From: a virus | Virus record (IMG/VR): IMGVR_UViG_3300005573_000001 | Direction: 5' to 3' (one strand) | DNA length: 64,000 bases | Shown: piece by piece, positions 1,153 to 25,200 of the stretch | How the letters are laid out: each line of letters opens with the position of its first letter | How positions within the stretch are numbered: the first letter of the stretch is position 1 | Position numbers and translations under genes: made by a program | The notes under the pieces: model-generated | What the model was told of the DNA's origin: nothing | The model's input: only the letters and a program-made list of their open reading frames with translations | Databases searched by the model: none

Positions 1153-2616
1153 ATGACTTATAACAATCTTCCAGGAATTCATACACTCTTGAGAGATGGC
1201 GGACTAGTTATCGACAGGCCAGGCGCGCAAACACAGAGCGTCCTTATTATCGCATGTACTGGAACAGCTTTAACTGGCGAAGATACGCAAGAGTGTAAAC
1301 CTGTATGGGTGTCTAACGAAGCAGCATGGGAAAGGCAGGGCTTCGGGAGCGCGTCCATTAAAAATATTGCGTATACAGCCTGGAGGGAAGCTATTAATAC
1401 CGGATGTCAGGATGTAAGGGTGCTCACCGTATACGGAAACAACGGAGCAGACAAATATGAAAACCTGCACAAAGTATACAAGGGCCTCGAGGACTATGAC
1501 GTTGACATTATAGCACTTACGGGCGTTTACGCGGACGACGATGTTGGAAGCCCAACGTTCAATCAAGACTATGACCAAGTAGATTATTGTTCAGTCGGTG
1601 CTAATGAGGTAGACGTAGTAGGTGAAACGCCAGATGGTGACATTGACGGTACGAATACGGTCTTCACCTTGGCTCATACGCTGATTGTTCCAGGGTCAGT
1701 TGTACTCACGAAAACTACAGGAGGCACCTCGGTTACACTTGTCGAGGTCAACAACCTGACTGATGCGAGTGCAAACGCTTATAAGGTAAACTACATCGAC
1801 GGGTCTATCGAAGTCAAGACGGCACCGACCGACGATCCTGAACAGTCGCTTACAGTATCATATGCATACTACGACGCTACGAGGAGTTTTGCCGCACAGC
1901 TCAACGGGTTCCTGAACATAGTATCGCAGAGAACGAGCCAGACGCTTGGTGTAATCGCGTTGAAGCCTTCAGATGACAATGACCTTCTGACGGTAAGAGA
2001 TTACGTTGCCAACTTACCGACGCAGATATACAGTGGACTGCTCCAAGTCGTAGGCGGGCCCGAGTGCATTGCTAAGGATAATTCTGGGAATGCTTACGCT
2101 ACTAGCGGCGTAGCTTCCTATGCGGGTTTAATTAGTACGCTGTCCCCACAATCCGGCCCAGTATACAAGATACTGCCGGGCATCTTTGGACTCACGTATA
2201 CCCTTTCGCCAGCCCAGCAAAGCATCATACTTAATAAGAACATAGTATGTTTCATAATGAGGAATGGACAGGTAAGGGTTTTGGACGGGGTTACGACAGC
2301 CGGTGCCGATAGCGACTATAGACGTCTCACGACGGTAAGGATAGTCAACGAGTTGATTCAGGGGATACGTTCCATCGGAGAACCATTCATTGGCGAGCCG
2401 AACGACTTGCCACATAGAAACGCGCTTGACGCCAAGATCAAGGCCCTTAGCAAAGCCATGGTCAGCGCAGGTGCGCTTGCCGGCGCTTCGTGCGTAATCA
2501 AAGCCACTAACGAACAGGTAATCAACGGTAATATGGAAATTCAACTAGACATTGTACCGGCCAGCGAGACGTTGAGAATCTCTACAACGATCGCCCTAAG
2601 GCCGAGTATAGCCTAA
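1153..2616 (+). CDS. Contractile tail sheath protein
   Basis: 487 aa, strong SD AAGGAGG. N-terminal LPG, YAGLIS motif, C-terminal RRLTTVRIVNELIQGIRSIGEPFIGEPN...IQLDIVPASETLRI typical of the sheath C-terminal domain. Followed by the tube gene. Confidence 0.9.
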   Translation: MTYNNLPGIHTLLRDGGLVIDRPGAQTQSVLIIACTGTALTGEDTQECKPVWVSNEAAWERQGFGSASIKNIAYTAWREAINTGCQDVRVLTVYGNNGADKYENLHKVYKGLEDYDVDIIALTGVYADDDVGSPTFNQDYDQVDYCSVGANEVDVVGETPDGDIDGTNTVFTLAHTLIVPGSVVLTKTTGGTSVTLVEVNNLTDASANAYKVNYIDGSIEVKTAPTDDPEQSLTVSYAYYDATRSFAAQLNGFLNIVSQRTSQTLGVIALKPSDDNDLLTVRDYVANLPTQIYSGLLQVVGGPECIAKDNSGNAYATSGVASYAGLISTLSPQSGPVYKILPGIFGLTYTLSPAQQSIILNKNIVCFIMRNGQVRVLDGVTTAGADSDYRRLTTVRIVNELIQGIRSIGEPFIGEPNDLPHRNALDAKIKALSKAMVSAGALAGASCVIKATNEQVINGNMEIQLDIVPASETLRISTTIALRPSIA

Positions 2617-2638
2617 GGAAAGGTAAGGAGAAAGAACT

Positions 2639-3259
2639 ATGCCACAGTCCCAATATACGAGAAGTTATACGTCGTTTGGCGGCGTAGACATTGTAGCGAC
2701 ATTCAACGGAAGAGTCATCGGAGAACTCCAGGCTATTACATACTCTGTTACCAGAGAAAAAGCGCCTATCTACACAATGGGCAGCCCCGACCCGAGGTCT
2801 TTCAGCAGAGGCAAGCGCGGCATCGCGGGCAGCCTAGTATTTACTGTACTCGATAGGGATGCCTTCTACAACCTTAAGGGCGAGGCCGCAACCTTTTATA
2901 CGGCATATGCCAACACTTACGATCCGTCTCAGACAGAGGCCGGAATCTACGTACCGAGATACGTGTATACAGAGGGCGGATGGACTAACCTCATGCAATC
3001 GAGGGTAGGCGACGGGGTAACAAACCCGGCGTTGGCAAACTTGTTCTCGGCATCGGAAGCTATATACGCAGATCAGATCCCGCCATTCGACATAACGATT
3101 ACAATGCAGAATGAGTACGGCCAGGCGGCGAGATTGAGCATCTACGGTGTAGAAATCCTGAACGAAGGCTCTGGAATGAGCATCGACGATCTTACAACGG
3201 AAAAGGCGTGCACTTATGTTGCACGTGGTTTGTCACATTTGACACCAGTAACGCAGTAA
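2639..3259 (+). CDS. Major tail tube protein
   Basis: 206 aa directly after sheath. SFGGVDIVATF...GELQAITYSVTREKAPIYTMGSPDPRSFSRGKRGIAGSLVF...PPFDITIT...GVEILNEG pattern of tube proteins. Followed by a hairpin terminator, as expected for a highly expressed gene. Confidence 0.8.
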   Translation: MPQSQYTRSYTSFGGVDIVATFNGRVIGELQAITYSVTREKAPIYTMGSPDPRSFSRGKRGIAGSLVFTVLDRDAFYNLKGEAATFYTAYANTYDPSQTEAGIYVPRYVYTEGGWTNLMQSRVGDGVTNPALANLFSASEAIYADQIPPFDITITMQNEYGQAARLSIYGVEILNEGSGMSIDDLTTEKACTYVARGLSHLTPVTQ

Positions 3260-3281
3260 CACGTGGTTTTACACGAAAGGC

Positions 3282-3314
3282 AGGGCGAGGTTTAATTTAT
3301 CTCGCCCTTTATTA
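3282..3314 (+). terminator. Probable intrinsic terminator/attenuator after the sheath-tube genes
   Basis: Inverted repeat AGGGCGAGGT (3282-3291) / ATCTCGCCCT (3299-3308) with one G-U pair, followed by a short T-rich tail (TTATT). Confidence 0.6.
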
Positions 3315-3328
3315 TATCGAGGGAAACT

Positions 3329-3679
3329 ATGAAAAGTTACACAGCAGAGTACAAGGCGGGGCCGCAGAGTGAAATCCTCGCTAAATTAGGCAACTTCGTA
3401 TTCGGAGAAATCAGCAGCATAAAGTTCCAGCTTATGGAGAATGGAGCCGTAGGAGAGCTATGCTTCAAGGTAATATACAAGGAACTAATCGAGAACGATA
3501 TTATGCCTATGTTCGATATATGTATCTTCACCGAAGACTCCGGGACAATCTATCAATGCCACCTAAATAACGTAATGCTTAGTTGCGGTAAGACCGTAAC
3601 AACGAACGAAGTAGGGTGTGGGCAAAACTACGTCTTTGCCGCACTTGAAGCCGAATATACACCAACGCATAGGGGGTAA
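3329..3679 (+). CDS. Short, divergent tail tube paralog
   Basis: 116 aa. Keeps VFGEISSIKF, GELCFKV and DIMPMFDICI, matching VIGELQAITY, GSLVFTV and DQIPPFDITI of the tube. Confidence 0.55.
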   Translation: MKSYTAEYKAGPQSEILAKLGNFVFGEISSIKFQLMENGAVGELCFKVIYKELIENDIMPMFDICIFTEDSGTIYQCHLNNVMLSCGKTVTTNEVGCGQNYVFAALEAEYTPTHRG

Positions 3680-3685
3680 GACATA

Positions 3686-4963
3686 ATGCAGTCTGCCTAT
3701 AGTAAAACATATAGCACCTTCTCTGGTGCAGACATAGTAGCCACCATCACACTGCCCGGCGGAAAACCCGTAGTGCTAGGCGAAATACAAACTATCTCCT
3801 ATAGTATACATAGGGATAAGTTTCCAGCACGCACCTTAGGACGTATTAACCCTAAGGGGTATTGTTTGCCAGAGTCAGAGCGTGTATACGTAAGAGAAAA
3901 GGGATACGTCTCAATCAAGGACGTAGAAGTCGGCGACAGTATACAAATAGATGTCCATGGATTTGGCAGCGTTGTAAACAAGTACGACAATGGGATTAAA
4001 CCATGTTATCGCCTTGAGTTAGAGAATGGATACCACCTTACTGCAAGTTATGACCACCGTATAATGACCCAGAACGGGTGGAAAGAAATGCAGGACATCA
4101 ATATTGGCGACCGCATATATGTGTGTACGTCGACACCCTCGCCCGACGATGCGCCCCTTAGCGATGATATGCTGCTTACGGTGGCGGGCTTTATAAATCC
4201 CGAGAATGAATGCGAGCACATCCCACAGGAACTGCTCAGAAACCTTAGTAAGCGACAGGTAGAAGTATTCTTGAACGGGCTTCTTCACACCGTCCCATAT
4301 TGCACAAAGTCTAAACGGCTCGCCGAGGACATAAGGTTTCTGCTTTCTAAGATTAGCATGGAGTGCAAGATAGAAGGAGAGTGTAGTATTACCGACATCA
4401 AGCCGCCGGCAGACACCTTTAGGGTAGTAACTGGCATCGCGCCTGCCGGAGAGCAACGCGTCTACGATATAACCGTAGATAACGTGCATAGCTTTATATG
4501 CAACCACATACTCGTCCATAACTCATATGGCGGCAGGACTATAGGGGGTTCGCTCATATTCACGGTCTTTAACAAGAATGTTCTAAAGTCTGTAATAGAA
4601 GAAGCATTCAGTAGTAACGCGTTAGGACAACTGGACTTTAGCAAGTTCAACAATAACGAGGAAGAGTACCTTATCAACGAGATGTACTACAGGATGTTGG
4701 CTGACGAAATGCCCCCGTTCGACGTCACAATTACCTTTGCCAACGAATATGGAAATACGGCTCAGCTCACAATCTCCGGGGTAACTATAATAGACGAAGG
4801 ACAAGTAATGTCTATAGAAGATATGGTAACCGAGAATACGATGTCATACCAGGCCCTTGACATAACTCCGATGCTGGAGTTAGGGCAGCTTTCTTTCAGC
4901 GAGAACAATGGACTCTATATGACCAAATTCACACCGTATATCCCATTCGATATGAAAGATTAA
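3686..4963 (+). CDS. Tail tube paralog (tube initiator-like) interrupted by an intein
   Basis: The exteins (aa 1-59 and 280-425) align with the 2639 tube protein (TFSGADIVAT, GEIQTISYS, GGSLIFTV, DEMPPFDVTIT). Confidence 0.85.
   Translation: MQSAYSKTYSTFSGADIVATITLPGGKPVVLGEIQTISYSIHRDKFPARTLGRINPKGYCLPESERVYVREKGYVSIKDVEVGDSIQIDVHGFGSVVNKYDNGIKPCYRLELENGYHLTASYDHRIMTQNGWKEMQDINIGDRIYVCTSTPSPDDAPLSDDMLLTVAGFINPENECEHIPQELLRNLSKRQVEVFLNGLLHTVPYCTKSKRLAEDIRFLLSKISMECKIEGECSITDIKPPADTFRVVTGIAPAGEQRVYDITVDNVHSFICNHILVHNSYGGRTIGGSLIFTVFNKNVLKSVIEEAFSSNALGQLDFSKFNNNEEEYLINEMYYRMLADEMPPFDVTITFANEYGNTAQLTISGVTIIDEGQVMSIEDMVTENTMSYQALDITPMLELGQLSFSENNGLYMTKFTPYIPFDMKD
3863..4522 (+). mobile_element. 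Intein (220 aa) with degenerate homing endonuclease remnant
   Basis: Block A CLPESERV, block B TASYDHRI, block F VYDITV, block G ILVHN followed by Ser+1. Removing it restores GRINPKGY|SYGGRTIGGSL, collinear with tube GSPDPRSFSRGKRGIAGSL. Internal FLNGLL...SKRLAEDIRFLLSKI resembles decayed LAGLIDADG blocks E/H. Confidence 0.93.
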
Positions 4964-4983
4964 CCTAATGGAGGAAGCAGCCA

Positions 4984-7191
4984 ATGCAGTACTATTCCCC
5001 ATACGCCAGATCGATAGAATACAAGAATAGCTCTAAGATTGAGACATCACAAGGTGTTATCAGCGGCGGCACTACTAATCACTTCAGATATGGACCAGAA
5101 TATTTTAGCGGTACCAATGCATACATCTACTTCGGCGACATATTAGTCGACGAGATATTCTCGTTACAATTCACACTAACCGAACAAGTCCAACCTATAT
5201 ATGGATACAACTCATATACAGCCGATGCGTGGGCATATGGGCAACGGCTGATCCAGGGTACATTCGACATATACTATAGGGATTCCGGGTATATCTTTAT
5301 CCTACTTGAGGAAGTAAAGAAAAGATATGATGCAGGAAAGGTAAGCACTAGTTTCTTTAGTGCCATAGAGTCACCAGAGGAAATGACGCTGGAAGCCCTG
5401 CTTGCCGCAGCCGCCCAAGGCGACAGCAAGGCGTTCGATAAGATTGCCAGCCAGTTCGAATCGATGTTATGGGGTAATGCCGTAGCCGACCCTGTCTTCA
5501 ACGACAGGAATATGTACGCACACAACAACCCATATTTTTATTCAACTAGGAACTTTAATAGCTTGCAAAAAGCCGGGTTTGATGTTATAATAACGTATGG
5601 GAGCGAAGCTAAGAAACAGATACAGGAGAAGACAAAGCTTGACTCAAGGTTTCAGCCAGTTACGGCTATAGAGACTATAAACGGGGTCAGGCTGCAGGCA
5701 GTCGATAAAATCATAGACGCTACGGGAACTCCAATCTTTGAGCGCTATACATTTCTAGCGGAAGACTTAAACCGTTCCATCAGGGCAACCTCTGGAAGTA
5801 CCCAGAGCTCTCAGAATACCGATAATACGTACAAGGAAGCACTCAAACCACAAACCACGCCTTACACCAAGGTGTCCAAGGGTACAACTGGAGCATGGGC
5901 TGAATTGGCCGAGGCAACGCTTAACGAAATCCTATGCAACGAGATATACGCATGCAGTAAGGATAAGAACTATACTTCGGAAATGCTCACAGCCCTAGGT
6001 AGCAGCCCATACAAAGTCCTGCCAATCGACGGTTCATTCGGAGATAAAGACGTAACATATACAAAGGCTATGAGCAAGTATTTTGCAACCATATATGGTT
6101 CCGGGTCGTTATATGGTGGCAATGGATATTTTGACGACACCACTTGGTCTGTCTGTAAGCAACGCAATATAGACTCGCTAGCCAAGGATGCCACCATGCC
6201 GATAACGGGCATAGGCGACATTCAATATATACCCCCTATGGCAAGGGGCAGCAAGGGATATTATGCAACAAAGCTGCAGAATGCCATCAATGCATGGGTA
6301 GACATGGTTCTTACCAACAACGCGATAGGGTCAATCTCAATGCAAAAGTTCCTTAGTGAACTGGATAAAGCCGGGCTAGGTAACACCTTTACTACTTCAT
6401 GTAAAGTGAAGGTCGACGGAGACTTTGGCACAGGAACTGCAACGGCGCTCAAGAAAGTTTATATATGGCTGAAGACCTTTGGCGCACTCAGCTATGCTTC
6501 CTTGGTAGATAAGGAAAAGGTATGGGGGGATTCGCTGGAGAAGTCTGCGGCTAAGTACCTTGGACAATATCTAACCAACGTATCACTTAATATGAGCAAC
6601 TCCGCTACAGTAACTACGGTACAGGCTGCACTCAACGAATGGGCAGACGCCCATAATAGGGAAGGCGGCAAGTATGCGCTTGTTCCGATTACCGGCAAGT
6701 ATGACGACAAGACTAAAGCACTACTGACATCATTTAAGACTAGCCTAAATATAACAGACCCAACCCCATGTGGGGAGTCAACATACGAGAAACTCAAAGC
6801 TTATATATATGACTATGAGCATAATATGGATACAATCAAAGATAACCCCTTTAGAATCCCGCCTATGGCTAACGGTAGTAAGGGTAAATTTGTTGTCTCC
6901 CTGCAGAATATCATTAATTCCTACTTCACCGCAATAGGCGGAAAGATAGACTACATAAACACGGAGGCCCTAGAAAATGGTTATAAGGCCCTTCCGGCAA
7001 GCAGGAGTATAACAGTAGACGGTACTTACAGTGCTACTGTAGCAGACATTATAGAGACGTTATCCTGGTATTACGTCAACAGTGAACACGAAGTACACAA
7101 AATAGCCGCGTCCGATATGGGCAACGGCGGAAATAACAAGGATATTTGTAGAGCCCTCATTGAGAAGCTCTACTATGAAATTAATCTATAG
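4984..7191 (+). CDS. Tube-like baseplate protein with C-terminal peptidoglycan-binding-like repeats
   Basis: N-terminal tube-family motif (YFSG..YFGDILVDEI..QF...PIYGYNS...GQRLIQGTF). The C-terminal half has about four G-S-x-G...LQ..LN...DG-x-[FY] units resembling PG_binding_1. Confidence 0.65.
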   Translation: MQYYSPYARSIEYKNSSKIETSQGVISGGTTNHFRYGPEYFSGTNAYIYFGDILVDEIFSLQFTLTEQVQPIYGYNSYTADAWAYGQRLIQGTFDIYYRDSGYIFILLEEVKKRYDAGKVSTSFFSAIESPEEMTLEALLAAAAQGDSKAFDKIASQFESMLWGNAVADPVFNDRNMYAHNNPYFYSTRNFNSLQKAGFDVIITYGSEAKKQIQEKTKLDSRFQPVTAIETINGVRLQAVDKIIDATGTPIFERYTFLAEDLNRSIRATSGSTQSSQNTDNTYKEALKPQTTPYTKVSKGTTGAWAELAEATLNEILCNEIYACSKDKNYTSEMLTALGSSPYKVLPIDGSFGDKDVTYTKAMSKYFATIYGSGSLYGGNGYFDDTTWSVCKQRNIDSLAKDATMPITGIGDIQYIPPMARGSKGYYATKLQNAINAWVDMVLTNNAIGSISMQKFLSELDKAGLGNTFTTSCKVKVDGDFGTGTATALKKVYIWLKTFGALSYASLVDKEKVWGDSLEKSAAKYLGQYLTNVSLNMSNSATVTTVQAALNEWADAHNREGGKYALVPITGKYDDKTKALLTSFKTSLNITDPTPCGESTYEKLKAYIYDYEHNMDTIKDNPFRIPPMANGSKGKFVVSLQNIINSYFTAIGGKIDYINTEALENGYKALPASRSITVDGTYSATVADIIETLSWYYVNSEHEVHKIAASDMGNGGNNKDICRALIEKLYYEINL

Positions 7192-7200
7192 GAGTAGAAT

Positions 7201-7626
7201 ATGGCAAAGAAATCACCATTGATTCCAGAAGAAGAAGTAACTGCAACTCCGATGGTTACACCAGAGGATGACACGGCCTTCTACAATGAGAAGGGGGAGG
7301 AACTGCTGTTCCAAAACGGCCCGACGCTTACCGAAGTCGAAGAGTGGAAGCGCAGGTATACTAACATATATGTTACCGACTTTGAGAACGGTGACGTATA
7401 TATATACAGGCCACTTACACGCAAGGAATGGAAAGAGATACGCAACATACAGAATGCCGACCAGCTTTACCAAGAAGAGCGTATATGCGACACAGCCGTA
7501 ATATGGCCCAAGACAGATATAAACAAGTTTAGGATTCATGGGCCTGCGGGAGTTCCTACGGTTCTCGCCGAGCAAATACTTGAAATATCTGGGTTCATTC
7601 CTAACGTATCCGGCGTAAAACTATAA
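7201..7626 (+). CDS. Tail assembly chaperone 1
   Basis: 141 aa, acidic, located between tube genes and tape measure. YIYRPLTRKEW...ICD..VIWP...AGVP..LAEQILEISGF. Confidence 0.65.
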   Translation: MAKKSPLIPEEEVTATPMVTPEDDTAFYNEKGEELLFQNGPTLTEVEEWKRRYTNIYVTDFENGDVYIYRPLTRKEWKEIRNIQNADQLYQEERICDTAVIWPKTDINKFRIHGPAGVPTVLAEQILEISGFIPNVSGVKL

Positions 7627-7645
7627 AGTGTAGGGAGGTAACTTT

Positions 7646-8230
7646 ATGACCTCTCGAGAACTTCTCCTCTCCAGAATCCCAGAATCAAAACTAGCCGAGT
7701 GGCTGGAAAAGTATAGGGATATATTTATCGTGGAGAGCGGAGAATACGCTTACATGTGTAGGCCTATCTCGTATGCGTCTCTCATGTTGATAGACAAATT
7801 CGGCGGCGATGACAGCGCTAAAGAGGATGCTATCTGCGCAGAATGTGTCCTTTACCCACCGATAGAAAACGTTAACAACCTCCCAGCTGGTATTCCGACA
7901 GCTATCGCCCGTAGCGTACTAGAGCGATCATGTTTCCTAAGTGAAAAGTATGCAGAGGAAATACTGAAGGAATTTAGGGAGGATATGAAAAAGGCTATCA
8001 ATCAGTTCATCGCCGTCACTGCGTATGCCTTCAAGATAGACATGGAGGAACTGGAGGAATGGCCAATAAATAAGCTTATCAAGTACTATACCCGTGCCGA
8101 GTGGATACTGCAGCAAATTTATGGCGGCGGGGAACAGAGTACACGGCAGGAAGGTAGTATAGAAGACTTCCCAGAGCTCAAGGCAGAGCAGGCTTTTTTA
8201 AGCGGAAAGTTGCACCCAAAGAAAGGGTAG
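7646..8230 (+). CDS. Tail assembly chaperone 2 (paralog of 7201 with C-terminal extension)
   Basis: Own SD GGGAGG. YMCRPIS...ICAECVLYP...AGIPTAIARSVLERSCF mirrors chaperone 1. Immediately precedes the tape measure. Confidence 0.65.
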   Translation: MTSRELLLSRIPESKLAEWLEKYRDIFIVESGEYAYMCRPISYASLMLIDKFGGDDSAKEDAICAECVLYPPIENVNNLPAGIPTAIARSVLERSCFLSEKYAEEILKEFREDMKKAINQFIAVTAYAFKIDMEELEEWPINKLIKYYTRAEWILQQIYGGGEQSTRQEGSIEDFPELKAEQAFLSGKLHPKKG

Positions 8231-11200: not shown

Positions 11201-14200
11201 TACGACAGAGTTCCGCGGCTGCCTCACTCCAGAGTCCAAGATACAATGTAGGGGCGGTATGGTAAGCGCAAAAGACATCCGGTTTGGAGATCTGGTACTA
11301 ACGAAGGATGGAACATACCACCCGATAACTGCCATAATTCCAAGAGACACCGCAGAAACAATCTATAAGGTTACTACTATACTGGATGATAGCGAAACAG
11401 TATGGCTTACCGGCAATCATCAAGTACTTGCCATACACACCGGCCATACGCCAGAATGGGTGCCTGTAGAGAATATTACACTTAACGACTATATGTTGTA
11501 CCCCATACCAAAGGGAAACAACGACAGCGATACAATATCCATTGGTGGCACGGTGCTTACCGTTAACAAGTCGCTAGGTAGATTAGTCGGGCTATATACC
11601 GTCACAGGACACTGTGAAACAGGTACGGCCAGCATCTTTAAAAGCCTGGTACCTGGAGAGAATCAACAAAGCAGACACTTGTCCAATACTATAATGGATT
11701 TGTCAAACCTGGACTTCTGGCTTGGCTTTATCGAGGCATTTGAAACAACGAGTATCGAAGTCGCGAACTATCGGCTAGCTAAACAAATACAACATATTCT
11801 TCTAAGGCTCTATATCGTCGCGTCAATATCAACGTCGAATAATGCATACAGAATAGATTATAGTAGCAATAATGGGCTTTATAAGTGGGCAGACGACGAT
11901 ACGCTGGCTGTCGCTATCAAGTCTATAGGGACCGCCTATTACAAGGGGGTAGTGTATGACTTCTCGGTAGATACAGAGCCAAGCTTTGTATCATCCGGTT
12001 ACATTATGCACAACTCAAAGATCTCATACTTTGCGCCAAACTGGTACCGTCGCATGAAGTCAGATTACATGATGACGGACGTAGGGTACGGATCAGAGAG
12101 TGAGTATTGGGCTAACAACTGGCTCCCAACGCCGCGTAACCCGCTTGGACCAATCAAGACAATGATACTTGACCCAAACCATTGGCAGCGTAAACACCTA
12201 AAGGATAGGCCAGCAGCTGTTATAGGCGGAGTCCAAGAATTGCAACAGATACCCCTTGTGGGGCCATTGCTTGACACTACAATCGGTCGAGTCTTAAATC
12301 CACGCAGGCTGCGTGCAGGGTATGCCAGGGCCCACAGGCAATATATCAATAGGATTAACGAAGAGATAAAGGCACGCTACGAACAAGAGAGTCAAGGTGG
12401 GTACTACGAAGTACAGCCAGGTGGCGGCCTAGTTCCTGTCGCAGTCCCCGACGTAATAGAAGCCGGAGACGAGGACATAGTTCCCGCAACAGGCTTAAGG
12501 CCTGGTTACTACGGACGCAACGTGTCAGTTAGTGGTATCCATATCACCGACGAAGTAGCGGACAGCAGGCGGCGCGGGATGGGATATGGTGCAGCCCTAT
12601 CAACCTCAGAACTAAGCGACATCAACGCTAGCTTCACCGCAGGGTCTCGCGTAATACCTATTAGTCCTGCTGCAATGCTCAACTCCATTATGTCTAATGA
12701 AGACTATATGGACGCTTTCCTGCCGACTACTAATCCAAGCAGCGTTTCATACCGGCTTGGCGAAGCTAAGTATAGCCTGACTGAGTTAGCCGGCTTATAT
12801 GGATTCACATTTAATATGTTGTTCGGCGGGGAGGGAGCTGCCTCTGGACCCGTCTTACAGTATGGCGGGGATGCATGGAGCATACAAAGAGCCTTCTGGG
12901 ATATGGGGCTTGGAGGATTCCCGGGAGAACTATCAGAGATAGGACGTAGGTTCATACCGAAGAAACGTACGGAGAGACAGTGGAGTCCGTTCAGGAATAC
13001 GATGCCAGAATGGCTGCCTATGGAGTTTCAATATGGAGACCCCTTTACTAAGATAGCACGTGGAGAAGCGAGACTACCCGGCAGCGGATACGAAAGCCTT
13101 AACCAGCTCCATCCAGATATGTTCGGCGAATATGGAGCAATCGACAGATTTAAGATACTCGCCGATATAGCTCCATACTCGGAACAATACAAATATTACA
13201 GCAAGATACTTACCCTATACAACCAAGCCGGGCTGCTTTCTGACGAAGAAAAGGAAGACATACGGGAAATCAAGCATCAGGTCCATCAGCAGAAACAACG
13301 CTATGACATGACGCCGTATAAGTTTCTATATGCTCACACGCAAAGACATAAGGTCAAGATTAAAGAGGTTATTGATGACATTACGTTCATAGCGGAAGGG
13401 TATGCTCATCCAATGAGATTGGCTGGCATAACCATGCCGCCACAATCGGATACCAGTCCCGGAGCACAAGAGGCAAGAGAATACCTCAGGTCGGTTATTC
13501 GTGGCGGCGCAACCATATGGATAGAAACCGACGCAGACCCGCTCTTCGCTGTCCGCGGCGACGTGATGCAGACTATGAGGGTAGCAGTCTTCGACCAGCA
13601 CGGCGAATCTGTATCCAGTAAGTTGGCACGTACCAAATGGGGCGGCCAGAAGGGCGTAGTCAAGGCTGATTACAAAGATACGAGAGCGACTACAGTACGT
13701 GCGTTATATAGCAAGGGCGAGATAACGGTAGGTAAGGTTTGGGAGCTGTTAGTACACCGTAATAACCCATTCAACAATAAGTTTATGCAGGTACGTAGTC
13801 CATACGAACAATACGTTCGAAGGATGGTATACGGCAAAGACTTTAGAACGTGGCAACACCCAATTAAGGGATTCATACAACCTATTATAGACACCAACGC
13901 GATGCGCAACCCAATACTGGCTACGGCAGTGGGTGCACTCGGAGGATCTCTATTCGGAAGGCGCGGGCAAACCGGGGCCAAACTAATAGGGGCCATTATC
14001 GGCGGCGCTATTATGGGCGGGGCCTCATCTCTACGCGCAATTAACGAGACATGGAATAGAATAACCAAGAGATCCGACTATACGTGGATACCGAAACGCC
14101 GCAGACTAGAACGTGAAATCAACGAATACTTTGATAGACTAACATATATAAAGTATAAGGGCCTATACGAGCGAGCCAGAGAATTGGCTCGCAAGGAAGA

Positions 14201-15042: not shown

Positions 15043-18000
15043 ATGGCAGATAATAGACTCGACAAGATTAAGATACATGGGATTACGTATGTAAGGTCAG
15101 ACAAGCTAAGAACGATAGCTGTAACGCCCAAAGCAGCGCCCTTCAGCGATATACAAGAGAATAAGGTAGATGAGGTTTTCAGCAAGCTGCAAGCTGCAGA
15201 CAAGAACGCAGCCATGTTAAATTCGCCTATGCATCAAATTAATGCTAACGTAGACTTTGGGCGACCTGATATAACGTATCGGAATTACTGCAACATCTAT
15301 GAGAACGGCGGCCAAGTATTCGCGTTCGACATCGAGGGCAACAACACTATTATTGGCGGCATAAAGCAATTTGGTGTAACAGAGATTGGTATACATGGAT
15401 ATAAGGTCCCAGCTAAGGCTATGCGTCAGTCTGAGTCAATAACAAAGAGTAGTAGCTGGAATGCGGCAGTCAGGCTTTCGTCGCCACAGGCGGCATACTA
15501 CAAGAAACTACTGGATAGCGGGGACTTTGCTAGCTTATCTGAAGGAGACGCATGGGCCATATCCACCTTGGCTTCGTATAGCGGTGCCAAGTTTGGACCT
15601 GATGGCAGTATCGTCTCTAAAGGTCCGATACGCGTTTCTCCCAGACACGTAAGGGAATGGCTAGAATCAAGCGCATCTAACGTCAGAGCTGCCCGTGCTG
15701 GCTTAGAGGCGCTTCAGAGACATGGCTTGCCATTAAGTCAGGCTGCCGCACAGGTAAACAAGTATATAGCCGATAATACGCTACCAGGAATGCCAGTATT
15801 CTCGCTTGGGCAGGGCAGCAGGGGGTTTGACCTTCCGATACTACAGCGCGCAGGATTTAATTTACCGACCGATCATATAGACATGTTGGAGCTTATGACG
15901 CAGTCAAAGGAAGCTCCAGAGATACTACGTGGCGCTGCGGACCACATAGTTATGAACTATAGCTTGTCGTCATATGCTAAATCGGTTCTTGGACATGAAG
16001 AAACACACTCGGCTGCCGCAGACGCGGAACTAGTCGGTACCCTGTTTGAGAGAAGTATCTATAAAACAGACAGGCTTAGTCTTGGAAAGAAGAAACCAAT
16101 CAGACAGATGTTCGCAAACCCAGTAGGGGCAGCCATCGAGGCCGATAAGCTATACGCACTGCGCAGCGCATCGACATCCGACGGCAAGGTCCTCTTCGGC
16201 GGTGTCTGGGAGAATGTCAGTAAAAGTAAGAATGGCGAAATCAAGTGGCGACTTAATAAGTATAATACATACCCTGTTAGTAAATATAGTATGTATAGTG
16301 CCTATACATACGATATGCCTGTAAGCGCCATACCTAAAGATATGGCCAGTAAACTAGCCGAGGAACATGGAATTGCGTCTGACGAAACGTTGAAAGTATT
16401 AAAGCTTACTGAACACGGCGGCGACTACGTGTCGCGAATGGTGTTTAGGAACCAAGATGACTTGGAGGGGTTTATACAGCACACCTTTGGACGCCCACCA
16501 AAGAATGGGGCCGCGACAGTAGAGCGACAGGCCCACATGATAGACCAAGCACGTAGACAGTATATCAATACATGGAGCGATGTCGCCAAGTTTACGAAGT
16601 ATACTAAGGCCAGTCAGATACTCAAAAAATACGTAGATACTATGAGTGCGGCTGGAGAAAGATATAGTATACCGACGTTCAATACGATCGACGAGATGGT
16701 GTCTTACTGGAACGACGTCGTAAAGAAAGTTGGCGGCAAAAATCCTCTGAACACAAGGTCTCAAATCAGGGACTTTATCATGCTAGGAGATAGGTATGTA
16801 TCTGAAGCAATGGTTAGAGGGGAGCTTCTCAACGAGCTTCCAACCCTTGAGGACTCATACAGCAAACAGGTAGCGGTACGCCGGCTGTATCACGAACTAA
16901 AGTCGGCTGGCGCACTGCCAAAACCAACTGGAGTTCCATACGCGTCCAAGGCATTTATCCTTAATGTAGACGAGGAGCTTGGAGAGCAGTATTATACCGT
17001 GCTTAATCGCTGGAACAAGCGTGACTTAATACGAGGAATAAACAACGCCATCTATGGTTCAGGTGCAAAGAACATCGGAGCTGTAAATCGAAGAGCTAGA
17101 CTAATCGTTCAAGAACTTGCAGATAGAGGAGTCGTTGACCAGTCTGTAGCTAAAACGTTGCTTGACATGACTACAGGTAGAGGTATCGTAACGCCAACAT
17201 ATATATCCAGCAAATTAGCTTATGCAATCCAACATGGTCCCAGCCAAGATATGCCTAATGGCGAAATCCCTGAAACAATAATGGGGATACCAGTAAGGGG
17301 CACAGTAGAGGACGTACGCAGCAGAATCCGCACAAGAGCTGCCAACGGCGCAGTAGAAAGGGCATTATCCTTTACAAGGCAATTCACCTCCGGTCCCGCC
17401 TCAGGTACAGGTAAACTTACACCAGAAGGTGAGGCAATACTCGAGAAGTATCAGAGTAGGGTTACCAAGAGGCTTAAAGAGAGTCTCGGGGTTACCGGTA
17501 ATATCGGAGAAATAGTAAAGACTAAGACTGGAGCTCGTATCATGATCTCGGTTCCTAATATGAAGGACGAGGTCAATAAGCTCATGGAAAACTGGGGAAG
17601 ACACGGCTTCAGTACTACGCTATCATATGATAGGACGTCCAACACGCTATTAGTTGCCGCGCAACGAAAGAGCATACAAGGCGCTACAGATATAGCGGAG
17701 ACGATCTCTAGCGGAAAGGTCGTTAGGTTTGCCATACCCTTAAGTCATGCCGAGGGATACTATACGATAGGCGGAACACGTAGAATGGCTCCTTTCTTCC
17801 TAAAGGAGGCCAAAGGCACAACACATCGGTTCACGGACATGTCCGTAGAGCTTACACGAAGGTATGCAAACTACGCTAGACTTGTCGCAGAAAAACTAGA
17901 GAGCGGCGCTAGCTATACTGAAGTTAATAATATGATACAGTCACTTCCAGGCAAGATGTTTATGGAAATGACAAACTTGGACTCCGACCTTAAGACTACA

Positions 18001-21000
18001 ATCAGTAGAAGCGGCGACTGGATGAGAACTAAGGCCATCTTCTTCGGCGATGTGAGCTCTTTTGGCAAGCCATGGAAAGACATCGGTTGGGACAAGAAGA
18101 TGGCAGCCAGGGAGCTTAGCGAGATGATGTGGAAAACCTACGGCATAACAACAGTTCCGTTCCGCGAGTCAGGGGCCGGACACAGTATGGGTATTCTCTA
18201 TGACCTTGTCAAACATACAAGGATTGGGCAAGAGCACATGACGCTCTATAGTCCCACTTTCTGGCAGACTGCCAACATCCTGAATGCCGGCGAGTTCAGA
18301 GTCAAGGGTGGGTATACCACTATAGAGGAGGCAATAAAAAACAACGAAAATATATTATTAGAGAAAAGCGGCAAGCTTGGCGAATATGAGCGCCCGCTCC
18401 TAACAGCATTCGAGCAAAAGCAGGAGCGTACCGGTAGCGCCAAAAGGTTTATGCTTAAGACGGTATACATGGAAGACGCTATGCTTCACGAGCTTGGATT
18501 AAAGGAAAGCGTATATAAGGGTAATATAATCGTCGACAAAGACGTAGCAAAGATTTTAGTGGCTACCGGCCATACGAAGAAGTATAAGATTCCATGGGAA
18601 AACTTAGACCCGGAAATACAGGCCAGGTTAGCTACAGAAGAATACAGCGGGTCAAGGTTCTTAGAGTTAAGCCCTAAAAGAAATGGCGGATACGTATATA
18701 ATGGCAATAGAATGGTCACGGTTGGCAAGGTGGCATCAGAAAGCATCGCGTCCAACATCTCAGACCCGACAAACTATAGACCGATAACTCATAAGCTCTC
18801 AGGAGACGTATATACACACATCGAATACGACAAGCGTACGCAGACGTTAATGCTTAGGACCATATACGACACAAGTACCGCCAGCAAACTGTTTGCGGGA
18901 TCTGATAAGGTCATGCCAACATTCGTAGACATGAACCCAATCATATTGCGGGCACGGGAGAAATTTGGTATAGACCTCACCGGTGTAAGGGCTATCACCT
19001 CCGCTTCAGAAATAACCAAGAAAGGAGCATGGGATACGCCCGTCGCATCATGGATGCTTTATGGTATAAAGAGCGGGGTAGACAGAGGTATAGAACTACC
19101 AGAAATACAGAAGTCACTAAGGACGCACTTTGGACTCAAGACAACAATCGACTCACGCGGCAGACTCATCAGTAGAGGGTACGACTTTAGGCTTGCCAGT
19201 AAATTCGAATCAGACGAAGCAAGGTGGGCAAACTGGTTTAAGAGCATGGGCATGAGCATGGACGATGCTCTGCTCAAGACCACAAGCGGGAACGAGCTCT
19301 TTATGGGATACACAGAATTCGGTATGAGCGACGTGTTCCGCTATATGCGCGCCTATGGGAAAACTCTCGACGAGGCTAACAAAGGCATATACTTCGGTAA
19401 ACGTGAACTAGACGCACTTAGGAAATTAAAATCAGATATTACAGACAACATAAGCTATCGTGGTGCCGAACAGACAATAGCATACATCCAAGGTGAAATC
19501 CAAAGAAGTCCCGAATTTCGCAACGTTAAGCCATCTCAGTGGGGTTCATTGTGGTACTCTCCATTAGAAAGTCTATATAAACAAGACCCAACTGTATCTA
19601 TAGTTACAGATACGATGACCGGTGAGGAAATCGGAAAGAGAATACTGCGCAGCGGTCGTGTCTTCAATAAGAAGGGCGGACCAGAAACCTTAGTATATAG
19701 CAGGGGGTCTTACATTCCAAACCTGCCGGAAGGCGTAAGGGCAATACCGGTAAGTGAGTTACACTCTATAGAGGGTACACTTAATATGGGGGAACCAATT
19801 CGGACACACGTAGGTGACGCAGTGTCAGATATTGGTAGAGTCATCAAGGGTACCGTCTACGACCCGCGGCTCGCCGGCAAAAGCGGAGGATGGCACTTAG
19901 AGCTACCGTTCCCGGTAACAGTCGGGGATGAAATGGTACGAAAGACAGTATCAACTATGTATATGATAGGAGCTCAGGAGGTAAGGGGTCGGATATTCAA
20001 CAACGACGCACTAAGAATAGCAGATGCCCTTGTCGGAGCCATCAATACCTTCCAGAACCCCGAAGCGGCGGCAAGTGAAGTGACAAGAGCCAGAGAGAGG
20101 ATCCCGCAATTAGTCAACCAGTATTACGGAGAGGTTTGGCGTCAGATATTCAGCAAGGATAGCAAGCTGTATGAAGAGTTCCTCGGTGGATATGTAGGTA
20201 GGTCTGCAATACTCACTCCTAAAACAGAAAACGTCCTAAGCAACCTTGCCGAGAGCAACACGGTAAAAATCTCAAGACAGGCTGCGGCGACAATGCTTGA
20301 AGGCATAAGTCAGGCAGACCAAATTATGAGGGAGATGGAACATGGCGAAGGAATACCAAGTTTAATGGGCAGGGAGCCGATATTTCATAGGGGTGCCCAA
20401 AGTTATGTCAGAACCAAGATAGACCCTAACATTGAGAAGAACGTAATCATGCTGACAGTCGGACAGGAATATATAGCACAGGCAGATAACGATGGCGACC
20501 CGATAAGACTGAAGCTGCTACTCGGACGCAATCCTGACAAGTATATAGAGAACCTTCATACAGCAAGGGAATGTGTCGATAGGCTCCTTGCTACTAACCC
20601 GAGTCAAGCGGAGTTCAACAAGCGGCTGCAACAGGAACTGTACAGGTACCGCAATAATGCAGATATGCCCCTCATAATAGAATCCATACTCAAGGAGCGC
20701 GCCGCCAAGAGAAACACAGATGCCGTTACGCTACTAATAGCCGGCGAAGAAACATCTAAGGTATCTACTAATATGCTTAAGAAGGCTCGGGAGCAGAAAG
20801 AACAATGGGACTATATTAAGTCAGCCAGGTCTAATAAGACACCCGAGATGCGGCAATTAGAGATGATGATTGCCAGCGAACAGAATATGGCCAAGGAGCT
20901 CTACATCGGTCGCATGAGTAACATTAACCTTAGGATAAAGACCTTTGTAGACTACGTTAACGAGTATGGTTCCGACGCTATAACGGTAGGCAAGTATGTA

Positions 21001-22260
21001 AAGAACACATTAGGACTAGCGACAGCAAGCGCCTCAATAGATAGTTACAGCAACGTATTTAAGGCCCTTAGCGACACTGCCTCCACTCAAGCGGAGCTCC
21101 TGTACGACGCAGCCAGTAAAATCGGCGGAGGTATGGAGAGCAACGTTGTTACAGACCTTAATAAGAAAATCATGCAACACCTTGGAGAGGGAACTACTCA
21201 AGAGGAAGTCCGCAGACTATACGACAAGCTAGGCAGTCTATTCGATGCATATCAGAGTGGCGGATGGAAAGAGGGCAACAGGCTACGTCAAGAGTTCCTA
21301 AAGTTGACCCCAGAGCGTGCGCTGTCCATCGATATGCAGTCTATAACACTCAACGGGCAAATCGACGACATCAGGAACAGACTGGTTGACGTATACGGTG
21401 CTGGCAACAGAGACGAAATAGAGAGCACCATTAAGAAGTTCTTCAGTATTAGTGGTTCTAATATGACGCTCGGCGACTATATTGACTATATAGATAAACA
21501 ATACAGCACCATAGAAAGTAGTATGAGCGCGCTTGGCGATAGCATGAAGCAGGTCTTTGGACAGCATATGCCGTTTATGCATGGTAGAGAAAGCGCAACC
21601 GGTACTACCGCGCTCATCGCCGCAGCACAGATGGAAGGCAATATGCCTGTTGTAATGTCCCCCACAGACTTCCGTAATCTACAAAGCTTTATAGGTAAAA
21701 GTAGTGAACACATAGCCGAAGTTGAGGAAACCTTAAGGTATAGGGCGAACATAGCAAGCGCAGCTATGAGGGAAGCAAGTACAGAGGCCAAGATAACCAA
21801 TGAAATTGTGTCAGACAGTGCACGGGTAATGGCTGATGACATACTAAAATCCAGACAGCGCAAAATTAACGTACCAGGCGGCAAACTGATTGGCGGCGTT
21901 ATGGCAGCCAGTCTTGCAGCTGCATTGTTTGCAGGAGAACCAGAAGAAAAGACAAGTGGTCAGGCACAAGCCGAAGACGTGCAAGGCACATACAAAGAAT
22001 TAGACCCTTCACTATTGCCGCCGTCCTCTCTAGGTACTGGTCCCACAGCAAGAATAACAACTAATACAGGGGTGTCACGCATACATATAAGCGTAAGCGA
22101 TCCCAAAGGCATAAGCCAGGCGCAGCTCAATCGAATCGTAGAACAGTACGTGAGGACCCCAAGGATATACAACTCACGTAAGGATAACTCTGCCAGGATC
22201 GACAGGCAGTGGACGGAAGATAAGATAAGAAAAGCTATGACCTATGGGTATACATTTTAA
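15043..22260 (+). CDS. Putative single-chain two-barrel (DPBB) RNA polymerase fused to an N-terminal DEDDh 3'-5' exonuclease; candidate virion RNAP
   Basis: Exo motifs FDIE (D96,E98), GFDLPIL (D263), HSAAAD (H322,D327). RNAP beta'-like motifs LGGYVGRSAI, GREPIFHRG (R1777) and QADNDGD (D1815,D1817,D1819; nt 20482-20499). Confidence 0.75.
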   Translation: MADNRLDKIKIHGITYVRSDKLRTIAVTPKAAPFSDIQENKVDEVFSKLQAADKNAAMLNSPMHQINANVDFGRPDITYRNYCNIYENGGQVFAFDIEGNNTIIGGIKQFGVTEIGIHGYKVPAKAMRQSESITKSSSWNAAVRLSSPQAAYYKKLLDSGDFASLSEGDAWAISTLASYSGAKFGPDGSIVSKGPIRVSPRHVREWLESSASNVRAARAGLEALQRHGLPLSQAAAQVNKYIADNTLPGMPVFSLGQGSRGFDLPILQRAGFNLPTDHIDMLELMTQSKEAPEILRGAADHIVMNYSLSSYAKSVLGHEETHSAAADAELVGTLFERSIYKTDRLSLGKKKPIRQMFANPVGAAIEADKLYALRSASTSDGKVLFGGVWENVSKSKNGEIKWRLNKYNTYPVSKYSMYSAYTYDMPVSAIPKDMASKLAEEHGIASDETLKVLKLTEHGGDYVSRMVFRNQDDLEGFIQHTFGRPPKNGAATVERQAHMIDQARRQYINTWSDVAKFTKYTKASQILKKYVDTMSAAGERYSIPTFNTIDEMVSYWNDVVKKVGGKNPLNTRSQIRDFIMLGDRYVSEAMVRGELLNELPTLEDSYSKQVAVRRLYHELKSAGALPKPTGVPYASKAFILNVDEELGEQYYTVLNRWNKRDLIRGINNAIYGSGAKNIGAVNRRARLIVQELADRGVVDQSVAKTLLDMTTGRGIVTPTYISSKLAYAIQHGPSQDMPNGEIPETIMGIPVRGTVEDVRSRIRTRAANGAVERALSFTRQFTSGPASGTGKLTPEGEAILEKYQSRVTKRLKESLGVTGNIGEIVKTKTGARIMISVPNMKDEVNKLMENWGRHGFSTTLSYDRTSNTLLVAAQRKSIQGATDIAETISSGKVVRFAIPLSHAEGYYTIGGTRRMAPFFLKEAKGTTHRFTDMSVELTRRYANYARLVAEKLESGASYTEVNNMIQSLPGKMFMEMTNLDSDLKTTISRSGDWMRTKAIFFGDVSSFGKPWKDIGWDKKMAARELSEMMWKTYGITTVPFRESGAGHSMGILYDLVKHTRIGQEHMTLYSPTFWQTANILNAGEFRVKGGYTTIEEAIKNNENILLEKSGKLGEYERPLLTAFEQKQERTGSAKRFMLKTVYMEDAMLHELGLKESVYKGNIIVDKDVAKILVATGHTKKYKIPWENLDPEIQARLATEEYSGSRFLELSPKRNGGYVYNGNRMVTVGKVASESIASNISDPTNYRPITHKLSGDVYTHIEYDKRTQTLMLRTIYDTSTASKLFAGSDKVMPTFVDMNPIILRAREKFGIDLTGVRAITSASEITKKGAWDTPVASWMLYGIKSGVDRGIELPEIQKSLRTHFGLKTTIDSRGRLISRGYDFRLASKFESDEARWANWFKSMGMSMDDALLKTTSGNELFMGYTEFGMSDVFRYMRAYGKTLDEANKGIYFGKRELDALRKLKSDITDNISYRGAEQTIAYIQGEIQRSPEFRNVKPSQWGSLWYSPLESLYKQDPTVSIVTDTMTGEEIGKRILRSGRVFNKKGGPETLVYSRGSYIPNLPEGVRAIPVSELHSIEGTLNMGEPIRTHVGDAVSDIGRVIKGTVYDPRLAGKSGGWHLELPFPVTVGDEMVRKTVSTMYMIGAQEVRGRIFNNDALRIADALVGAINTFQNPEAAASEVTRARERIPQLVNQYYGEVWRQIFSKDSKLYEEFLGGYVGRSAILTPKTENVLSNLAESNTVKISRQAAATMLEGISQADQIMREMEHGEGIPSLMGREPIFHRGAQSYVRTKIDPNIEKNVIMLTVGQEYIAQADNDGDPIRLKLLLGRNPDKYIENLHTARECVDRLLATNPSQAEFNKRLQQELYRYRNNADMPLIIESILKERAAKRNTDAVTLLIAGEETSKVSTNMLKKAREQKEQWDYIKSARSNKTPEMRQLEMMIASEQNMAKELYIGRMSNINLRIKTFVDYVNEYGSDAITVGKYVKNTLGLATASASIDSYSNVFKALSDTASTQAELLYDAASKIGGGMESNVVTDLNKKIMQHLGEGTTQEEVRRLYDKLGSLFDAYQSGGWKEGNRLRQEFLKLTPERALSIDMQSITLNGQIDDIRNRLVDVYGAGNRDEIESTIKKFFSISGSNMTLGDYIDYIDKQYSTIESSMSALGDSMKQVFGQHMPFMHGRESATGTTALIAAAQMEGNMPVVMSPTDFRNLQSFIGKSSEHIAEVEETLRYRANIASAAMREASTEAKITNEIVSDSARVMADDILKSRQRKINVPGGKLIGGVMAASLAAALFAGEPEEKTSGQAQAEDVQGTYKELDPSLLPPSSLGTGPTARITTNTGVSRIHISVSDPKGISQAQLNRIVEQYVRTPRIYNSRKDNSARIDRQWTEDKIRKAMTYGYTF

Positions 22261-22272
22261 GGAGTACTATAC

Positions 22273-25200
22273 ATGTCAAACAGCGATAATGTACTAAGTC
22301 AGGCAGAATTCAGTAGTAGCGCAGTTAAGGCGTTTCAAAAAGCACATGCACAGGATAATATCAACTATCAATTTGAGATGTTTCCAGGAGGAATCAATCC
22401 CGATCCGTCTGGCACCAATGGCGTACGAATTACAACACCAGAGTGTCTGTACGGCAAGGTCGTAAAGGTATACGACGGCGATACCTTCGATATTGAATTG
22501 TACGCAGTAAGCGAAGGATTGCAACTCTGGATTAATGGTGGTTTGGAGGACCCGTTCCTGTATGACACCGCTAGTAACAAGCACATATACTATACAGTCC
22601 GGTTAGTTGGCATCGACTGCGCCGAGTTAAAGAGCACATCTAATAGTGAGGAGAAGAATAGAGAATATCTCTATTATCTTGGTATACGCGATACAACGGA
22701 TACCCTATCTCGCATGTACGATCTAGCCGAAGAAGCTAAGGCTGCTACTGCTAAGATGGTCCTAAACAAGATGGTAGTCGTCTGGCTAGAAAATGACGTT
22801 GCGGCACCACACCATGTAGACACACATGGGAGACTAGTCGGATGCGTATACGTACCGTTAACCAAGGGTAACAATGGTAGCTCAAAAGACTACCCAGAAT
22901 GGAATCAGATAGGTATCAATGTAAATACGACCTTGCTTGCCACTAAAACCAAGATATTTGAGCATGAGAACCCTGACACTCGTCTGGCAAAGATCTCTAT
23001 CTATTTGGATAGTAGCAATAACGAGCTCGTAAGCCGTTTTCCGATAGCAGCATGGGCTAACTTAGGCATGAAACCTGGAGAACAGCAGACTGATGAAGTC
23101 GATACAGAGCTTAACAGGATGATTGATAAGTGGCTCGAAGCTATAAGCGTCAGTGAACGTGGTGGGGTTTATATAGGGTCTGACGGAACCCTATGGGGGC
23201 ACAAAACAGAAGGAGACAACATCGTATGTAAGGAAATAATAGCTGGTGGTAAGGACGGCGTTACGTTTGGCACTAGAAGGTTTGTACAGGACGACATATG
23301 GGTTAATAATCTAAATCCAATACCAGCAGCCGAGGACGAGGCAGAACTATCGTCCAAAGGCTATAAATTAGACCTTCAGGACATACCTGGTATCAATCAA
23401 TATGGATATGTCGATACTCGCGTACGTATCGGAGACACAATCCTTACAGTTCCTCCTTTAGCAATCCGTGTGCGTAACGTAACACAGAGTACTAAGGTTA
23501 ATACGTTGCGTAATAATAGCTCGATGCAAACTCAGTCCGGTTACGTAAACACAGTAGTCGAAATGGAACTATTCTTTCACGACCTTGAGTCGATTAATGG
23601 CATCGAGATACCTAACCCATTCCAGAATGCCGACTTCACATTCAAGGATGGCGTACCACCGATATTAACGGAGAGATGGAAGAATCCCTACGCCATCAAT
23701 GGTCTGCGCAGTCTAATCGCCCAGTTTAAGAAGGCTCCATTCCTCCCTATATATTGTGAATACCTAGAGGATGCCCATGAAATCGGGGCGGTCGCACTAG
23801 AGTCAATCAACGTAAGTACAGTGCCAGGATTCCCGAACTGCCTAATGGCTACGCTAGTTATGACTGCGTTCGACTGGAACACATACTTAATAGATTGTGC
23901 CGACTTCGGAGACAAATTCAACTGGCCTATCTTCAGGTGGTATTACCAGCATTGTATGCAGCCAAGTAAGAACAATAAGGGGTACGACACCTTTACATAC
24001 CTTCCAGCCATCGGCAAAGACAATACTACTAGTGATAAGATCAGCTTCTATATAGCAGACGAAGGGGTCCTTGCGGCGCGTCTTTGGGCTATAAAGGAGA
24101 TGCGTAACTATATATCGCCTCTTGACTTTAAGGAACAGTCTAAGGACAAGACAGTAGCATTAGGACAAATGCAATACGACGGCATCACTATTAACAGTGC
24201 TATAGACCAAGCTAATAGGTTCAAACAATGGATAGCAGAGACTACAGACACGAACCGGCGCGGGAATGCACAGGTAGTGCCCGACTTTCGGTGCGCAGGA
24301 ATGTCGGCAAATGACCCACCGGTGCACCTACCAACCACCTATGGGCAAGTATATCATATTTTAACTGGGGGCGGCAAATATCCGTTCAATATGATGCCGC
24401 CATCAATTAATCGTGACGGCAATGTCGTATTCGAACAGTTTGCCGGCAGGTTGTGCGTCTCTACATACCTAGGATGTCCTGTTGAGAATTTCTATGACAT
24501 GTTCGGCAATCCGATCAACTTGTATAGCTATAACACCCGTCCCAGTCCATATCAGATATTCACTGGCCATTATGCAGACTACTTAAAGCATCTTGGAAAG
24601 AGCGCATGTGCGGAAGACGTAGCAAAGATGTTACCAGAAGCGGTCTGGGCTAAATACTTTACAGAAATGATGGAGTATGTGTATGGCAAGAATGCGACGG
24701 ACTACTACTTTGTCATTAACGGCATGTTGCCTACAAGGTTATATGATCTTACAGATACGGGGATAGCCATGGGCTATGCTCTCGACTCGGTGTTTAACAA
24801 TATAGCATTCATCAAGTTTGTAGGGATGAACAAGATACAACTACTATATGACTCAGCTAATTCTAAGATTACTGAAACCACTAGGAAGAATATTGACGAT
24901 AACCCTTATCTTCTAGCGCAAGGCGGCGGTATGATGTACATACCGCTCTATGCCGAGATTAACTCCGTCATTATAGAAGGGAGTAAGTACGTATTCATTG
25001 ACATACCCAGCAATGAGGAAAGCGCAGGGTGCGTACGTGTAGTCGCCGCAATACCGCTTGGAGACGACGTTATATGTGCCCAACTAAAGAGAGCAGCCAA
25101 ATACTACGACGAGTCTATCCAGGGATATAGTAACTTTATCAATTACATGAATAAATTCTATGAGAGTGACGAGTCGGATCTCCCAATGCTACTCGCTGTA

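Follow-up and report, generated by a model that had tools for sequence, protein, structure and literature searches.

The window analysed here, a stretch of 64,000 nucleotides of viral DNA (IMG/VR record IMGVR_UViG_3300005573_000001), carries a gene for a 2,405-residue protein in the middle of a tail module, which raises the question of what such a protein does in a place where a tape measure has been presumed. An earlier note, made from the sequence alone, had proposed a virion-packaged single-chain two-barrel RNA polymerase that would most likely be annotated as hypothetical. This last expectation is borne out, as single-sequence searches of Pfam, PHROGs, NCBIfam, PDB sequences, annotated phages and a 5.8-billion-entry set returned no useful match. 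A Pfam match of the protein to Med8 fell below the cut-off and was discarded.

The gene belongs to a tightly packed plus-strand operon, in which the previous stop lies 7 nt before it and the next start 12 nt after it (Table 1). Since its neighbours match gp145 (upstream) and the gp147 baseplate hub (downstream) of Bacillus phage 0305phi8-36, with sheath and baseplate J genes on either side of these three genes, the reading frame can be assigned to the slot of gp146, a putative tape measure, in a myophage tail operon like that of 0305phi8-36. The hub gene also matches those of the relatives Edson, KLEB27-3, WH1, Moorella phage MTATph1 and Acinetobacter phage ME3. The gp145 homologue directly follows the chaperone-like genes and has a clearer hydrophobic segment than the polymerase protein. 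Scans of the tail operon for sigma-70 promoters and terminators gave chance-level hits only.

Table 1. Features of the polymerase gene and of the surrounding tail operon
Feature	Position (nt)	Strand	Remarks
Tail sheath	1153..2616	+	Pfam Phage_sheath_1C
Tube-like genes, after sheath	within 1153..8230	+	gene order as in 0305phi8-36, WH1, ME3
Two chaperone-like genes	7201-7626, 7646-8230	+	synteny only (order as in 0305phi8-36, WH1, ME3)
gp145 homologue, 2,266 aa	8235..15035	+	BLAST to gp145, E 4e-100; alternative tape-measure candidate
Intein in gp145 homologue	~11220-12014	+	Pfam Intein_splicing; boundaries by motifs
Polymerase gene, 2,405 aa	15043..22260	+	predicted exonuclease, unassigned folded region, single-chain two-barrel RNA polymerase and conserved C-terminal domain
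Predicted DEDDh 3'-5' exonuclease, aa 85-335	15295..16047	+	D96, E98, D263, H322, D327, plus D280
Middle region, aa 336-1059	16048..18219	+	mixed alpha/beta and helical; conserved family-wide; mean pLDDT 70.6 (aa 71-1052)
Beta-like half, aa 1060-1470	18220..19452	+	predicted double-psi barrel with flap-like insertion
Basic pair	K1282 18886, K1289 18907	+	K1282 42/42; position 1289 K/R 41/42
Beta'-like half, aa 1509-1864	19567..20634	+	clamp-like region and predicted catalytic double-psi barrel
Catalytic residues	R1777 20371, P1779, D1815/D1817/D1819 20485-20499	+	invariant 42/42
Post-barrel helical region, aa 1900-2060	20740..21222	+	candidate bridge helix and trigger loop
C-terminal ~150 aa	21805..22257	+	Gly/Ala-rich, mildly hydrophobic segment (hydropathy peak 1.54); common to gp146
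gp147-like baseplate hub, 2,933 aa	22273..31074	+	SNase-like N-terminal domain

The intein of the gp145 homologue falls in a region that in KLEB27-3 is interrupted by a separate 636-nt ORF (gp031/gp032/gp033), which suggests a shared mobile-element hotspot, and a second intein occupies approximately residues 60-279 of a tail-tube-like gene (3686-4963). SNase-like (thermonuclease) motifs are found at the hub N-terminus (22273-22900, a weak Pfam match) and, on visual inspection alone, in the gp145 homologue (13400-13700); a nuclease domain may be present in each of three giant tail genes that lie side by side. Cell-wall hydrolases are encoded at 31088-33103, with NlpC/P60 and a peptidase M15/Hedgehog-like domain, and at 47615-48781, with peptidoglycan-binding and NlpC/P60 domains.

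The motifs named for the polymerase are present at the places reported, namely LGGYVGRS at residue 1714 (nt 20182), R1777, the aspartates D1815, D1817 and D1819 and, further upstream, K1282 and K1289. No other of the window's 30 long plus-strand ORFs contains DxDGD. In 2,000 shuffles of the protein it arose in 2.5%, and an RxP located 30-46 residues upstream of [AG]DxDGD in 0.05%. The decisive evidence for a polymerase is conservation together with fold. With regard to conservation, a direct motif scan of viral contigs returned no relatives, an exhaustive HMMER search yielded two homologues and a second search two more. A walk from the conserved upstream (gp145-like) gene gave 162 loci, and in most of those with enough flanking sequence the next gene encodes a homologue of 2,200-3,300 residues, leading to 49 non-redundant homologues. 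Conservation was assessed in an alignment of 42 rows with 13-20% identity to the query, P0005 and L110 being excluded. Across these rows, which were picked by synteny and by a match to the catalytic-barrel region and thus favour conserved residues in that part (neither the lysines nor the residues of the exonuclease entered into the selection), only K1282, R1777, P1779, D1815, D1817 and D1819 are invariant, and position 1289 is a lysine or arginine in 41. The proposed conservation of R1777 and of the DxDxD aspartates among homologues therefore holds, and the lysines of the beta-like barrel, which the earlier note had offered on weaker evidence, prove to be conserved as well. A family profile built without the query finds it with an E-value of 4e-60 over residues 1154-2161. 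The polymerase slot directly follows the gp145 homologue in dozens of phages and, judging from these sequences, the family is widespread among large 0305phi8-36-like and ME3-like myophages.

When the family profile is compared with PDB sequences, beta'/Rpb1 chains come first (phiKZ gp55, E 7.6e-8; S. aureus beta', E 3.8e-5). Furthermore, hhalign gives 95.5% (E 1.5e-8) for the family against Bacillota beta', as opposed to 14.8% against YonO-like polymerases from this group of phages, and Pfam RdRP (PF05183) is matched by none of the 42 members, RNA_pol_Rpb1_2 being matched weakly by 8, which sets the family apart from the RdRP/YonO/gp66 types. At the level of fold, residues 488-843 of the model resemble the beta'/Rpb1 clamp and catalytic barrel with Z 8-10 (best 10.1), and the inter-barrel region aligns, partly at low confidence, with the N-terminal clamp of beta'/Rpb1, from chain residues 12-29 onwards (Z 6.8 for the clamp fragment 3qqc). 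The likeness of LGGYVGRS to beta' stands in that the region is homologous, but the GRS-to-GRS pairing does not, as there is an offset of two residues and S1721 pairs with the serine of DYSG in the profile alignment with Bacillota beta'. The position of the asparagine of beta' NADFDGD is variable, with a glutamine in the query, a lysine in 18 of the 42 rows and an asparagine in 8.

The beta-like half was assessed mainly by structure. The AlphaFold model of residues 1022-2115 has an overall pLDDT of 61.5 and a pTM of 0.60, with pLDDT values of 80-90 in both barrels. Model residues 1-416 match beta C-terminal chains with Z 12.4-15.1 over approximately 300 aligned residues, the best match being the AR9 non-virion RNAP (Z 15.1, rmsd 5.0, 295 aligned), and a non-significant beta-side profile alignment (E 0.11) puts K1282 and K1289 on the lysines of beta GDK and GNK. 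Single-chain enzymes align over both barrels, namely QDE-1 (Z 10.3, 280 aligned, rmsd 4.5), P74 gp62 (Z 8.5, 206 aligned, rmsd 3.6), P23-45 gp96 (Z 7.2) and phi14:2 gp66 (Z 6.5). In the model the two barrels appear to be packed together, since the gp62 and QDE-1 superpositions extend over both and a single barrel would give about 90 aligned residues. Foldseek matches agree with the two-barrel RNA polymerase reading, and ESM Atlas neighbours carry Rpb2_6 and Rpb1_2 in one chain. The paired double-psi beta-barrels predicted by the earlier note are thus present in the model, and alignment and model together support a complete two-barrel catalytic centre in one chain, formed by K1282/K1289, R1777 and three putative Mg-binding aspartates. 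The view of a highly diverged two-barrel polymerase is upheld, except that both profiles and fold place it nearer to cellular beta/beta' than to gp66, gp96 or YonO. As a side observation, the BFVD matches A0A075BUT7 (a large uncharacterised protein of Microcystis phage MaMV-DC) and A0A8S5SD80 (a siphovirus 'minor tail protein') cover 800-1,100 columns of the polymerase model and are possible further tail-linked polymerases.

Outside the barrels, the assignments become more tentative. The middle region may include a counterpart of the beta N-terminal part. In the post-barrel region G1956 is conserved in 41 and N1960 in 35 of the 42 rows, and a leave-one-out HMM of this region matches the query (E 1.6e-5); pLDDT is below 50, and profile comparison gave no significant bridge-helix or trigger-loop match. 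YonO-like enzymes have a similar short IGxxN motif after the catalytic barrel (E 0.07). The C-terminal domain is probably a virion-assembly anchor. In the whole protein, Pfam and hydropathy analysis revealed no peptidase match and no segment above a hydropathy of 1.6.

A feature that goes beyond the earlier note is the N-terminal domain, which residues and fold predict to be an intact DEDDh exonuclease. The set composed of the ExoI D-x-E, the ExoII D and the ExoIII H-x4-D (D96, E98, D263, H322, D327) is invariant in 40 of 40 rows, the domain profile matches DEDDh nucleases (E 5e-8), and its model has the DnaQ/RNase H-like fold, with Cap18 (Z 15.0, rmsd 2.6, 171/177 residues) and RNase T (Z 14.5) among the matches. 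The domain thus shares fold (Z 13-15) and full catalytic set with DnaQ-like DEDDh exonucleases such as Cap18, RNase T, Pol III epsilon and TREX, from which it differs by a long insertion between ExoI and ExoII and by its fusion to an RNA polymerase. DNases as well as RNases are found among the matches.

Proofreading DNA polymerases usually carry a fused DEDDh domain, and the protein could therefore be regarded as a virion-delivered two-barrel DNA polymerase with PolD-like logic and a DEDDh editor. The variable asparagine position of NADFDGD would also agree with this. Against it, R1777, the counterpart of the ribonucleotide-selecting R425 of beta', is invariant, the fold matches listed contain RNA polymerases and no PolD chain, and lineages with only the exonuclease or only the polymerase exist. 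A DNA polymerase thus appears very unlikely, and an RNA polymerase joined to an exonuclease is the preferred reading of the enzyme.

The link to the virion comes from 0305phi8-36 gp146, which is annotated as a hypothetical tape measure and was found in the virion by mass spectrometry. It occupies the same slot, is of similar size, and has the exonuclease (E 2.8e-6) and the C-terminal domain in common with the protein studied here, the family C-terminal HMM matching gp146 residues 2385-2529 with an E-value of 1.2e-10. It differs in having neither DxDxD nor a polymerase region and in carrying its own exonuclease in mid-chain; this DEDDh-like domain of gp146 (L002:11573-19186), at approximately residues 1214-1505, is absent from the GenBank annotation. 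The C-terminal domain and the exonuclease in common with this MS-confirmed protein are the best, though indirect, evidence for a virion-associated family.

The slot is found in three states, of which exonuclease plus polymerase is the commonest. The exonuclease stands without polymerase in 0305phi8-36 gp146, in MTATph1 and in four other loci, and a shorter form of approximately 1,400-2,300 residues, with DxDxD and no exonuclease detected, occurs in ME3 (gp36) and in distant loci. This shorter form is tentatively regarded as a polymerase on the basis of a weak match (ME3, E 1e-4). ME3 gp36 itself (L174:10524-15335), a hypothetical protein of 1,603 residues in the same slot, with RxP, DxDxD and a weak family-barrel match, is probably a polymerase that has escaped recognition in a cultured phage infecting a Gram-negative bacterium; the top BFVD fold matches also include an ME3 protein of matching half-length. 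Two loci present the protein in pieces. The gp146 homologue of MTATph1 (L001:11730-19086) is split by a transposase cassette, with the exonuclease in CDS0027 and the C-terminal domain in CDS0031, and the homologue at L058:13125-21410 is divided into three ORFs (634, 1,441 and 653 aa), with the exonuclease in the first and the catalytic barrel in the last. In a midpoint-rooted FastTree phylogeny of the upstream gene, exonuclease-only loci are nested at several places among the exonuclease-plus-polymerase loci, which suggests that the polymerase was lost repeatedly and, since these lineages kept the exonuclease, that it is dispensable.

These losses, together with the tape-measure label of gp146, which rests mainly on length (PMC2147016), would fit a structural tape measure with dead enzyme relics. 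A relic would not be expected to keep catalytic residues of both enzymes as its only invariant columns, and this reading is the least probable of those considered. An active RNA polymerase that merely happens to be located in the late operon, for instance as a late-gene amplifier, seems quite improbable as well, though slightly less so than a DNA polymerase. The MS-confirmed homologue gp146 has no polymerase, so that no member with one is known from virions, and this reading would avoid the need for approximately 2,000 residues of globular domains to be packed unfolded in order to fit the tail tube. On the other hand, the C-terminal domain shared with the virion protein gp146 is kept even when the polymerase is lost, and the position of the gene between gp145 and the hub does not vary.

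The likely identity of the protein is thus a DNA-dependent RNA polymerase of the single-chain two-barrel type, associated with the virion and preceded by a DEDDh exonuclease at the N-terminus. On sequence and model, the beta-like barrel would supply K1282 and K1289, and the beta'-like barrel R1777 and the three aspartates. As operon position and the homology to gp146 suggest, the protein would be synthesised late, with the tail proteins, and incorporated into the particle, where it would probably lie unfolded or partly folded within the tail lumen, held by the conserved C-terminal domain. On infection it would be released, refold and transcribe the first-entering DNA without host RNA polymerase; this ejection through the tail and early transcription are proposed by analogy with P23-45 gp96 and phi14:2 gp66, and for gp96 both the release on infection and the host-independent transcription of the first-entering DNA have been shown (PMC10770324). 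More speculatively, the exonuclease might act as a separable, co-injected activity, in the simplest case resecting 3' ends of the incoming DNA and so exposing single-stranded template, or trimming RNA 3' ends.

A crude k-mer search for promoter motifs in KLEB27-3, WH1 and a 244-kb relative found only Shine-Dalgarno words and nothing above shuffles, leaving room for end-initiated or non-mRNA roles. One such role, that of a self-sufficient enzyme injected through the contractile tail, whose exonuclease prepares the template by resecting the incoming DNA end, or edits the product, and whose beta/beta'-derived polymerase carries out promoter-independent, end-initiated early transcription, is conceivable but rather unlikely. 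Less likely still is an injected two-barrel enzyme with a non-mRNA task, such as making short RNA primers, pulling in DNA by transcription-coupled translocation, or processing genome ends (circularisation or protection) with the exonuclease. The missing promoter motif, the fixed fusion to a 3'-5' exonuclease in Bacillota-type members and the separate YonO-like polymerase of many carriers point to it, while the clamp-like region and an R1777/DxDxD centre like that of processive cellular RNA polymerases speak against it, as does the occurrence of exonuclease and polymerase apart, which indicates that they are not obligate partners.

With regard to the second polymerase, a YonO-like enzyme is encoded by some complete carrier genomes and none was detected in others, KLEB27-3, WH1 and Edson among them, and the tail enzyme is the only two-barrel polymerase detected in KLEB27-3, WH1 and the 244-kb relative. 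The idea that the two enzymes are mutually exclusive was rejected, as several complete genomes carry both and others only the tail enzyme. Their being paralogues, as in P23-45, receives no support from profile comparison.

Among known systems, the virion-associated polymerase proposed here can be compared with P23-45 gp96 (PMC10770324; PDB 8H2M/8H2N), with which it shares a single chain, a beta barrel preceding beta', DxDGD, a tail-lumen gene position and the fold match over both barrels. There is no sequence similarity between the two, however, and the present enzyme belongs to contractile-tailed phages. Its RNAP part (residues 1060-2060) lies in mid-chain behind an exonuclease and is followed by about 350 further residues, whereas that of gp96 is N-terminal in a 5,002-residue tape, which is very long and has peptidase and membrane domains that were detected neither by Pfam nor by hydropathy here. 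Furthermore, gp96 is clamp-less and flat, whereas a clamp-like region is present here, and the enzyme does not appear to be a paralogue of the YonO-like second polymerase. P23-45 also has a cluster of its own conserved promoters; in the three carrier genomes the simple k-mer search gave none above shuffles. The phi14:2 gp66 (PDB 6VR4), QDE-1 and YonO types are likewise large single-chain two-barrel enzymes; the RdRP/YonO types have no flap-like insertion in the beta barrel (PMC7824862), which the family appears to possess. For 0305phi8-36, only the YonO-like enzyme is named in PMC7824862. The best sequence and fold matches are cellular beta/beta' and the phiKZ/AR9 multisubunit RNAPs, which agree with the family in the order of both barrels, the clamp-like region and a switch-region motif. 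Here they form one polypeptide, the beta end joined to the beta' start, with an exonuclease and a tail-type C-terminus in addition, and the beta' C-terminal half is unrecognisable.

Virion two-barrel polymerases are already known. What is new, within the literature searched, is the family, its exonuclease fusion and its contractile-tail operon setting: no published description of any of these was found, subscription journals being thinly covered, and WH1, KLEB27-3, Edson, ME3 and Moorella are all missing from the RNAP survey table of PMC10770324. If the proposed reading is correct, the family would constitute one more independent way of delivering a two-barrel RNAP with the virion, after phiKZ/AR9, the crAss-like phages and P23-45; in the literature searched, no earlier case occupies a tail-lumen gene slot in contractile-tailed phages or is joined to a DEDDh exonuclease. 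The reduced beta-beta' fusion would offer a means to study the minimal needs of a cellular-type core. The reading is open to testing now, since four cultured phages, KLEB27-3 (gp034), WH1 (gp095), Edson and, without the exonuclease, ME3 (gp36), carry the gene, whose annotation in all of them goes no further than structural or hypothetical. What has been called the 'tape measure' slot in 0305phi8-36-like phages may be reread as that of a cargo protein with exchangeable enzymes.
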